The translations under genes and the position numbers were made by a program. Shown piece after piece: positions 16,755-18,234 of a stretch of DNA of 35,531 nucleotides. Where the stretch lies: IMG/VR virus record IMGVR_UViG_3300017698_000052, positions 1 to 35,531 of that record. The stretch is one strand, 5' to 3'. The stretch is from a virus. The number at the start of each line of letters is the position of its first letter. Within the stretch, counting starts at the first letter, position 1. Under the pieces are notes generated by a model. That model saw only the letters and a program-made list of their open reading frames with translations, ran no database searches and was not told the DNA's origin.

Positions 16755-16838
16755 ATGACCCAAGGCATCCTCACCGGCATCGCTGCCGCCGCACTCACGA
16801 TCGCATGGGCCGTCTGGCCGAGGGAGGGGGATAGGTGA
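16755..16838 (+). CDS. Possible 27-aa single-TM micropeptide
   Basis: ATG at 16755 with AGGGGG upstream. Product MTQGILTGIAAAALTIAWAVWPREGDR. Its stop overlaps the next GTG start. Short, so weak. Confidence 0.25.
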   Translation: MTQGILTGIAAAALTIAWAVWPREGDR

Positions 16839-17239
16839 CCAACTCCCGAGCCAAAGGCAAGACCGGCGAACTGGGGGCACGCAAGGTGCTCGAGCCCATC
16901 ACCGGCATCAAGTGGCGACGCACCCAGCAGCACAGCGCGGCGGGCGTCGTCGGCGACATCGAGCCCGACGGCTACCACCCCGTCTGGTCACGGCTTCACG
17001 TTGAGGTCAAGAACGTCGCGGCCATGAAGATCGGCACCCAACTCTGGCGGGACGCGATGGCGCAGGCCGAACGCGACTGCCCACGCGGATCGGTGTGGGT
17101 GGTGCTGTTCAAAGAGCGGCGGGGAACGTGGATGCTCTCGTTCGTCCACGCGGGCATGCCCGTCACCGTGGCACCGGACGAGATGGGGCCAGCCCTGCAG
17201 CTCATCGCGGGGTGGATTGATGCGAAGGAGGCGGCGTGA
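16835..17239 (+). CDS. Hjc-like PD-(D/E)XK nuclease (Holliday-junction-resolvase-type)
   Basis: SRAKGKTGELGARKVLE...GDIEPD...LHVEVKN (E...D...E-x-K arrangement), then VWVVLFKERRGTWMLSF, as in Hjc-type resolvases. Confidence 0.5.
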   Translation: MTNSRAKGKTGELGARKVLEPITGIKWRRTQQHSAAGVVGDIEPDGYHPVWSRLHVEVKNVAAMKIGTQLWRDAMAQAERDCPRGSVWVVLFKERRGTWMLSFVHAGMPVTVAPDEMGPALQLIAGWIDAKEAA

Positions 17240-18234
17240 GGGCCTACTACAACGACATCGACCCGTTCGTGTGCGATTGGCTCGAGGAGCTCATCAAAGA
17301 CGGGCAGATCATGCCAGGCGACGTTGACCGGCGCAGCATCAAAGACATCGACCCCGCCGACCTCGATGGCTACTCCCGCGTCCACTTCTTCGCGGGCATC
17401 GGTGGGTGGGATATGGCATTGACCTGGGCCGGGTGGCCCGACGACCGGCAGGTGTGGACGGGTTCGTGCCCGTGCCAGCCGTTCAGCAGCGCAGGGAAGC
17501 GAAGGAGCATCAATGACGACCGAGACCTGTGGCCGGTATTCCATGACCTTATTCGGGCCTGTCGCCCTCCCGTCGTCTTCGGGGAGCAAGTCGCATCCGC
17601 AGAAGTTGTCGGCACTAAGCAAGAGGTTGATTTCGCTCTCGCGGTTCGCGACGGTGAATACGCCAAAGCGAATCGGCTTGCACACCGCCTTGCGAGATCG
17701 GGTGGATTCCATTTCCACCAACGGTGGATCGACAGAGTATGTGCAGACCTGGCGGAGTCGGGCTACGCCTTCGACTTTGACGTACTGGGCGCACACAGCG
17801 TCGGCGCGCCACACATCCGGCAGCGGCTGTGGTGGGTGGCCGACGCCGAAAGCGAACGACGCTCCGCAAGCAACGGTGAACAACAGGTCATCGAAATTCA
17901 ACCCCGGCATAACGCTCGTGGATGTTGCGAGGATGCTGGCGGGCTGGGCCACACCGACTGCGGGGGACGGGAGCAAACTGGACACGGCATCACCGTCCGC
18001 GATCGAGAAGCGGTACAGGGATGGTCGGCAGGTTGGGGTGGCGGTACAGGCGAGATTGTGTGTCACGAACCCGAGCGGGTCGTCTACCGGAGAGCCCCGA
18101 TTGAACCCGGCCTTCACCCTTTGGCTCATGGGGTTCCCAACCGCGTGGGCACACTGCGCGGCGCGGGTAACGCCATCGTCCCGCAGGTCGCGGCGGAATT
18201 CGTAGCGGCGTATCTAGAAACGGAGGCAGCGTGA
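17236..18234 (+). CDS. DNA (cytosine-5) methyltransferase. The ORF is uninterrupted, but the TRD/motif IX signatures lie in the +1 frame (see findings).
   Basis: Motif I FFAGIGG, IV SCPCQPFSSAGKRR, VI VVFGEQV, VIII GAPHIRQRLWWVA, X GNAIVPQVAAEF. Confidence 0.8.
   Translation: MRAYYNDIDPFVCDWLEELIKDGQIMPGDVDRRSIKDIDPADLDGYSRVHFFAGIGGWDMALTWAGWPDDRQVWTGSCPCQPFSSAGKRRSINDDRDLWPVFHDLIRACRPPVVFGEQVASAEVVGTKQEVDFALAVRDGEYAKANRLAHRLARSGGFHFHQRWIDRVCADLAESGYAFDFDVLGAHSVGAPHIRQRLWWVADAESERRSASNGEQQVIEIQPRHNARGCCEDAGGLGHTDCGGREQTGHGITVRDREAVQGWSAGWGGGTGEIVCHEPERVVYRRAPIEPGLHPLAHGVPNRVGTLRGAGNAIVPQVAAEFVAAYLETEAA

Follow-up and report, generated by a model that had tools for sequence, protein, structure and literature searches.

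Two cytosine-C5 DNA methyltransferases that are naturally made as two polypeptides are the closest described counterparts of the phage gene analyzed here. M.EcoHK31I is the type II m5C methyltransferase of E. coli HK31 with the target YGGCCR, and the accounts of it given in PMC2836561 and PMC3404938 (both citing Lee, Kam and Shaw 1995, PMID 7870574) describe an activity that is restored by separately expressed alpha and beta polypeptides and abolished by silent removal of the beta start codons. M.AquI of Agmenellum quadruplicatum (Karreman and de Waard 1990, as cited in PMC3404938) is, in that account, a natural two-polypeptide enzyme split in the variable region after motif VIII, where its alpha subunit ends, with the distal variable region and motifs IX and X held by the small subunit. 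A further point of comparison is provided by actinophage methylase genes, which carry out-of-frame HNH endonuclease insertions, the “ShiLan domain” (PMC11855218). Here we describe a methyltransferase gene in the 35,531-nucleotide phage genome IMGVR_UViG_3300017698_000052 from IMG/VR (positions 1 to 35,531; this whole stretch is called the window below), in which a frame-0 open reading frame (ORF), alpha, contains a second ORF, beta, in the +1 frame (Table 1). The principle of such an enzyme has been known since 1995, and what is worth recording is how strong the dual-coding signal is, how widely it occurs and what it means for annotation.

We think it likely that this locus encodes a two-polypeptide cytosine-C5 DNA methyltransferase, an alpha-beta enzyme specified by two overlapping genes. 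Neither frame is interrupted, and purifying selection acts on both. The middle of alpha has no conserved amino acid sequence and is of low confidence in the structural model, and beta is, by profile comparison, homologous to the region of single-chain relatives that holds the target-recognition domain (TRD) and motif IX in frame. As in M.EcoHK31I, there are two polypeptides and the beta gene lies wholly within the alpha gene, in another frame of the same strand, with motif IX in beta and motif X in alpha. Thus, by architectural criteria alone, the window gene would be of the M.EcoHK31I kind. The M.EcoHK31I polypeptides are about 309 (alpha) and 176 (beta) amino acids long, compared with 332 and 230 in the window. 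The two systems differ in that EcoHK31I belongs to a restriction-modification system, whereas the window gene has no flanking restriction-enzyme gene, and in that the literature places the M.EcoHK31I TRD in alpha, whereas in the window it is beta that carries the conserved recognition modules, and the variable region of alpha is an unconstrained tether. Set against M.EcoHK31I, the window alpha also has motif II- and III-like elements ahead of motif I, and its beta has an N-terminal domain that is overprinted on motifs VI-VIII. The M.AquI layout is matched by Gordonia phage GordDuk1 (below) but not by the window, where motif X is back in the alpha frame and beta is fully nested. Single-chain enzymes such as Mycobacterium phage Rita gp76, M.HhaI and Dcm have the same catalytic motifs with the whole enzyme in one frame; in the window the module between motifs VIII and X has moved to the +1 frame and is proposed to be a separate chain. 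As in the ShiLan genes, a phage methylase here accommodates a loop that is read through in frame and owes its sequence to a gene in a different frame, but the hidden gene in those cases is a selfish homing endonuclease, and the one in the window would be an integral part of the methyltransferase that is conserved family-wide.

The frame-0 ORF starts with GTG and runs through 332 codons with no interruption when the sequence is read and translated. The initial annotation of the window had described methyltransferase motifs divided between this frame and the +1 frame, and all of those motifs were found where it had placed them. Its hand count of third-position G+C (GC3) over 17839-18138 is also exact, at 0.76 for the +1 frame and 0.58 for frame 0; the N-terminal third of frame 0 has a GC3 of 0.84, and the gene as a whole is 63% G+C. 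That annotation had left dual coding as one option among several, and it is the one that the pattern of selection bears out. Third-base entropy was measured at conserved four-fold degenerate frame-0 sites among 68 sequences that are <70% identical. Over frame-0 residues 1-100 it is 1.4-2.0 bits, so synonymous change is free there, but from L105 to R308 (about 17548-18157) many frame-0 synonymous sites are frozen, with values of 0-0.8 bits over 17548-17830. Examples in the first frozen stretch are P111 (CCT in 61/67 sequences), V119 (GTT, 62/67) and G180 (GGG, 56/56), and in the second P291 (CCC, 61/61), L296 (CTG, 43/43), A297 (GCT, 65/65) and G299 (GGG, 64/66). From G311, in motif X, onward the synonymous constraint in frame 0 relaxes. 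Such frozen frame-0 sites indicate that the +1 frame is under protein-level selection, also beneath motifs VI and VIII. In the reverse test, the +1 wobble positions are fixed by frame 0 up to ~17549, partly fixed over 17729-17816 and fixed again from 18158, and they are free over 17834-18080 (1.0-1.9 bits, and at least 1.4 at all sites but one). The two entropy tests therefore divide the gene into five zones (Table 1), which comprise three selection states in one locus: both frames selected, beta alone selected, and frame 0 merely open. Across zone 3 the frame-0 protein alignment is gapped, variable in length and unalignable. This agrees with the observation in the initial annotation that the frame-0 middle carries no methyltransferase signatures, as that segment is not under amino acid selection and its predicted local distance difference test (pLDDT) values are <50 at residues 216-269.

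Stop codons are avoided in both frames. When frame-0 synonymous codons are permuted, 2.9 stops are expected in the +1 frame of the window between motifs IV and X and the probability of finding none is 0.01; among 72 loci, 68 have none in this interval, against 3.0 expected per locus. Conversely, permutation of the beta synonymous codons predicts 2.1 frame-0 stops per locus in the middle of the gene, and all 72 loci have none. The +2 frame has 4 stops on average in the same region. These 72 loci had been ranked on the full-length protein, which could bias them toward an open frame 0, and the test was therefore redone on 80 loci from bacterial genomes that were selected by the N-terminal 205 amino acids of alpha only. 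The result was the same: the frame-0 middle is stop-free in 68 of the 68 loci tested, with 8.1 expected. A frame 0 that stays open where its amino acids are free is what would be needed if motif X were covalently tethered to the catalytic domain; a double frameshift has no such requirement.

The identity of alpha is clear. Its product matches PF00145 with an E value of 2.9e-14, above the gathering score and driven by the N-terminal motifs only, and matches phrog_363 from end to end (5e-70); catalytic C5-methyltransferase motifs I, IV, VI and VIII are all present in frame 0. The single-chain order I-VIII, TRD, IX, X is not that of the window, since the TRD and motif IX sit in the +1 frame. An AlphaFold2 model of alpha built with 72 homologs has a predicted template modeling score (pTM) of 0.71. 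Its pLDDT is >90 for nearly all of residues 1-180 and 77-83 in three 10-residue blocks up to 210, falls to 30-41 over residues 216-269 (17881-18042), and recovers in a hairpin at 271-288 (about 72) and in helices at 303-331 (81-95). Foldseek with this model finds M.HhaI (E 1.4e-7), M.HaeIII and DNMT1, each with a probability of 1.0. Single-frame homologs that align with the 332-amino acid product from end to end, which the initial annotation had named as evidence against a division between frames, are formally returned by tblastn, but that result is misleading because the middle of each alignment consists of gaps and low-complexity noise.

The beta product matches phrog_1008, “DNA methyltransferase” (5e-17), and phrog_31772 (4e-9), so profile searches recognize both frames, although beta has no Pfam or NCBIfam match and no sequence match in the PDB. 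Its most informative similarity is to Rita gp76, a single-chain PF00145 protein (E 4e-42, residues 1-162) in which the catalytic frame itself encodes LLPTPxAxDGxGG repeats, motif IX LAPAFSEWMMGWPAGWVT and motif X. By hhalign, a profile of window beta residues 108-217 aligns with Rita gp76 residues 200-355 with a probability of 96.7% and an E value of 4.3e-10. As this is the region between motifs VIII and X, beta is the displaced TRD plus motif IX module, and the proposal that the +1 frame encodes a real target-recognition region is upheld. The family consensus of the +1 frame is LxxSLxSRL....GSTxYxLTWK...TPSGR.I.ALRASxxRTS.....GWPTPxAxD ... LAGWPTPxAxD ... GxLNPAxSRWLMGxPxEWxxCA. The motif IX helix is the one part of beta that aligns with M.HhaI and E. 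coli Dcm, and it does so co-linearly. The assignment of this helix as a putative motif IX draws on the significant Rita gp76 match to the region that contains it together with these co-linear alignments, which are not significant on their own. We also note, at the motif level only, that TLSARYYKDG of E. coli Dcm resembles WPTPTARDWKDG of many beta homologs.

Taken together, alpha would provide the S-adenosylmethionine-binding and catalytic large domain (motifs I-VIII) and, past the tether, a small conserved hairpin block and a motif X helix that is predicted to pack back onto the large domain. Beta would be translated independently, from its own ribosome-binding site and the ATG at 17513, and would supply what alpha lacks, namely the DNA-recognition modules (WPTPxAxD repeats) and the motif IX helix, with its N-terminal hairpin domain probably docking onto alpha. 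The active enzyme would then be an alpha-beta complex, and its most likely role that of an orphan methyltransferase shielding phage DNA from host restriction.

Several results weigh against this assignment. Comparison of beta with M.HhaI, the PDB and Dcm by phmmer and hhalign gave no more than an alignment of motif IX that is non-significant by itself (score -3.4 bits; E 0.2), and alpha-beta-alpha chimeras gave no clear gain against PF00145 (60.6 vs 53.7 bits for the window, 130 vs 138 for Lacticaseibacillus phage R23.9). AlphaFold2 predicts no globular fold for beta alone (54 homologs, mean pLDDT 60.8, pTM 0.31), the exceptions being a hairpin at residues 76-98 (pLDDT 83-95), encoded under alpha motifs VII-VIII, and the motif IX-like helix at 199-219. 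Low confidence for the lone chain might be expected if the subunit took its fold on contact with its partner or with DNA, and to that extent the model faintly favors the proposal. Finally, a fixed beta start codon was sought and not found: ATG is present at the window's beta start site in 29 of 89 family loci, and 41 of the 89 have no start codon of any kind there. Those 41 loci have ATGs with Shine-Dalgarno-like sequences further upstream and must use upstream starts.

The alternative that survives best, although we regard it as improbable, is that the overlapping beta gene is genuine but its product is no subunit of the methyltransferase. The enzyme would then consist of alpha by itself, with a recognition region of minimal size, and beta would either serve the phage in some other way or act solely as a regulator or a specificity switch. 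The lack of database matches and the poor prediction of beta by itself are compatible with this, as is the range of WPTP module number among beta-like proteins, from 0 to 8, and the spacing within a conserved C-terminal block that alpha retains, W..CRDGK.RPVEPG.FPLAHG, is likewise motif IX-like. On the other hand, the core of beta is homologous to the segment between motifs VIII and X of a single-chain C5 enzyme, and the middle of alpha contains no conserved sequence able to recognize DNA; the GordDuk1 +1 ORF holds the TRD, motif IX and motif X while its frame 0 stops after motif VIII, and both chains are needed in M.EcoHK31I.

The initial annotation had argued that a canonical enzyme would need two shifts of frame, and as an account of the gene's evolutionary history this stands. 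As translational recoding, in which a +1 shift after motif VIII (about 17833-17840) and a -1 shift before motif X (18149-18166) would give one canonical chain with motifs I-VIII, TRD, IX and X, it is very unlikely. Such a chain would have exactly the module order of Rita gp76, and the spacing from the motif IX-like tryptophan to GNA is short and canonical. Recoding does not require an open frame 0 in the middle of the gene, yet frame 0 is open there in every locus of the unbiased set that was tested, and the constraint on the +1 frame starts at 17548, ~290 nucleotides upstream of the proposed shift site. An X_XXY_YYZ heptamer between the motif IX tryptophan and GNA occurs in none of the 80 loci, and the proposed +1 site has no frame-0 stop, homopolymer or obvious hungry codon. 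Thus, the locus has neither a conserved shift site nor an alternative frame that is constrained downstream only, as programmed frameshifting would have. Beta has its own Shine-Dalgarno sequence and ATG, and the proven precedent, M.EcoHK31I, acts as two separately made chains. The remaining suggestion, that two compensating sequencing indels or a recently frameshifted pseudogene left the original frame open by chance, has a negligible probability and can be set aside, for although 63% G+C lengthens chance ORFs and a few relatives (L114, L125, L139 and L170) really do look frameshifted, the layout is shared by about 170 loci that were assembled independently, from diverse hosts and with G+C down to 48-50%, including the cultured phages N15, K1H, SEN5, eiAU, R23.9 and BS-TP4, and purifying selection acts on both frames while the third is full of stops, so that artefact and decay are both excluded.

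The two-frame layout extends well beyond the window. A megablast search with the gene as query matched none of 50,697 phage records, so it has no close relative among sequenced phages, and the family is large at 37-48% protein identity. Both frames are open and align with the window products in cyanophage Cr-LKS3, Edwardsiella phage eiAU, E. coli phage K1H and Salmonella phage SEN5. The K1H record, made by independent annotators, lists both ORFs, the inner one as “Mte8-like protein”. All 15 of the loci first examined have both frames open and both aligning. Comparison of homologous loci, a check proposed in the initial annotation, shows the +1 frame open for 215-552 codons in 95 of 95 related loci and in the window (G+C 50-70%), with the +2 frame usually open for just 50-100. 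The layout is also present in R23.9 (G+C 48%, canonical motif order), coliphage N15 (gene 58), Komagataeibacter phage phiKX2 and Bacteroides phage BS-TP4. In the unbiased set of 80 loci, 64 pass a strict test (motif IX in the +1 frame and motif X in frame 0) and ~9 more do so by eye (~73/80); the four loci named above, which look either frameshifted or rearranged, belong to this set. The beta ATG of the window, which arises from the frame-0 D-D/E-R-x-L-W-P codons, recurs as the start of the +1 ORF in the very distant phages N15, R23.9, BS-TP4, GordDuk1 and Rita.

At E<=1e-3 the +1 profile matches 31,937 cluster representatives out of 1.84 billion, 8,794 of them at E<=1e-30, and its best 150 matches are all 270-580 amino acids long. 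These matches are most likely methyltransferase subunits. No Pfam domain was found in any of 104 closer beta homologs or in any of ten long beta-like representatives (453-583 amino acids), so no in-frame fusions were found among those ten, and none of the 214 beta-like database proteins with motif IX has motif X in frame after it. The few beta homologs that are named by a source are called hypothetical proteins, and on several contigs the gene caller reported the +1 ORF alone. A different arrangement is found in GordDuk1 (L100, KP790010.1, 1024-1950), where the frame-0 ORF, annotated as a 179-amino acid “DNA methylase”, ends directly behind motif VIII, and an unannotated +1 ORF that starts MSGIFG holds the N-terminal domain of beta together with LLPTPVASDG and motifs IX and X; the enzyme of that phage is therefore incomplete without the +1 product. 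The layouts thus appear to include nested (window, N15, K1H, R23.9, BS-TP4), M.AquI-like (GordDuk1) and single-chain (Rita) forms. It is about an even call whether the window is one case of a very large, ancient and mostly unannotated class of obligate alpha/beta C5-methyltransferases of phages and prophages, in which the entire recognition unit, made up of motif IX and WPTPxAxD modules in variable number, is nested out of frame, the variable region of the annotated enzyme is no more than a stop-free tether, and TRD, motif IX and motif X have repeatedly hopped from frame to frame among relatives. The literature searched on overlapping or overprinted phage methyltransferase genes yielded no description of how prevalent the layout is in phages, and under “Mte8” or overprinted phage methyltransferases the M.EcoHK31I, M.AquI and ShiLan HNH papers were the only relevant ones.

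If the existence of such a class is borne out, the textbook placement of the TRD in M.EcoHK31I alpha may need revision, and the “hypothetical proteins” that are in fact specificity subunits of methyltransferases would number in the tens of thousands. Gene callers report one ORF and miss the other, and many phage records annotate the reverse of what the window does. Prediction of recognition, or expression of the enzyme for methylome or anti-restriction work, would fail if the annotated alpha alone is cloned. The about 690 nucleotides of same-strand dual coding are statistically strong and make the locus a useful test case for overlapping-gene detection.

Table 1. Features of the methyltransferase locus in the window, with the selection zones delimited by the two entropy tests
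Feature	Position	Strand	Frame and remarks
Shine-Dalgarno-like AAGGAGG	17225..17231	+	4 nucleotides before the alpha GTG; read from the sequence
Alpha gene	17236..18234	+	Frame 0, 332 amino acids; C5-methyltransferase catalytic domain, tether, hairpin block, motif X helix
Motif I FAGIGG	17389-17406	+	Frame 0
Motif IV PCQPFS	17470-17487	+	Frame 0
Motif VI FGEQV	17578-17592	+	Frame 0
Motif VIII HIRQRLWWVA	17812-17841	+	Frame 0
Alpha tether peptide SASNGEQQVIEIQPR		+	Frame 0
Motif X GNAIVPQVAAEF	18166-18201	+	Frame 0; synonymous sites free again here
Shine-Dalgarno-like GAAGGAG	17501..17507	+	5 nucleotides before the beta ATG at 17513; read from the sequence
Beta gene	17513..18205	+	+1 frame, 230 amino acids, ATG; wholly nested inside alpha, same strand
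Beta content			N-terminal hairpin domain, two WPTP-type recognition modules, motif IX-like helix
GGWPTPKANDA	17831-17863	+	+1 frame
AGWATPTAGDGSK	17939-17977	+	+1 frame
RLNPAFTLWLMGFPTAW	18098-18148	+	+1 frame, motif IX-like
Beta stop	18203-18205	+	Preceding +1 reading over motif X is an unselected tail
Zone 1	17236-17545	+	Frame 0 only
Zone 2	17548-17830	+	Both frames; motifs VI-VIII over beta N-terminal domain (L..SL.SRL....GSTxYxxTWK...TPSGR....ASxxRTS)
Zone 3	17834-18080	+	+1 frame only (WPTP modules); frame 0 is a variable G/R/E-rich tether, merely stop-free
Zone 4	18085-18157	+	Both frames; frame-0 C(R)DGK.RP.EPG..PLAHG.P.RVG.LR over +1 motif IX-like G.LNPAxSxWLMGxPxxWxxCA
Zone 5	18158-18234	+	Frame 0 only

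The window is a phage genome in which helicase, primase/polymerase, RusA-like resolvase, terminase and portal genes were identified. The alpha GTG overlaps the stop codon (GTGA) of the upstream RusA-like Holliday-junction resolvase gene (16835-17239, phrog_244 E 1.6e-15), and the neighborhood is that of a phage replication module, with the resolvase upstream and small unassigned ORFs downstream. In phage K1H a resolvase gene also lies shortly upstream of the methyltransferase, with one small ORF between them, which suggests a conserved replication-module context. A minus-strand ORF of 377 codons (window 16996-18129) is antisense to the methyltransferase gene and is probably a by-product of high G+C together with two stop-free forward frames. 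In the protein collection, the window's +1 product is present exactly (P0001) and the 332-amino acid frame-0 product has no identical entry, its best match being 65% identical; the source annotation therefore seemingly called the nested ORF only.

Rita gp76 (L101, 1009-2178) also has a candidate +1 ORF, open for ~190 codons (MNDTSGH...SSWKMW...WPPSGM...LLPTPV...MLPTP), that resembles the beta N-terminal domain and ends just where the in-frame LLPTP repeats start. The N-terminus of the window alpha (residues 1-80, 17236-17480) looks permuted: motif II-like YYN[DE]ID..A..WL and motif III-like G.VD.RSI precede motif I (HFFAGIGG), which is followed almost at once by motif IV. Position 27 of the TIGR00675 profile aligns with alpha residue 6 and the strand order in the AlphaFold2 model agrees with this; the usual order I-II-IV is kept in R23.9, Rita and BS-TP4. 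Between motif VI and the W.D.V helix, alpha has a ~37-amino acid insertion, VVGTKQEVDFALAVRDGEYAKANRLAHRLARSGGFHFHQ (residues ~121-163, 17596-17725), that is common to the closest relatives only, is helical in the AlphaFold2 model and lengthens the unconserved N-terminus of beta in the +1 frame.

The closest relatives of the alpha N-terminal domain are in metagenome-assembled genomes of Planctomycetaceae (L103, 67% identity) and Rhodopirellula (L104, 58%), and an Azospirillum argentinense protein (P0246) is 65% identical to alpha over 64% of the query. Four prophage relatives (L103, L119, L122 and L162) have alpha insertions of 150-250 amino acids between CRDGK.RP.EP and ..RVGRLRxYGNAI, downstream of the beta stop, and by analogy these may be mobile insertions like those of the actinophage methylases (PMC11855218).

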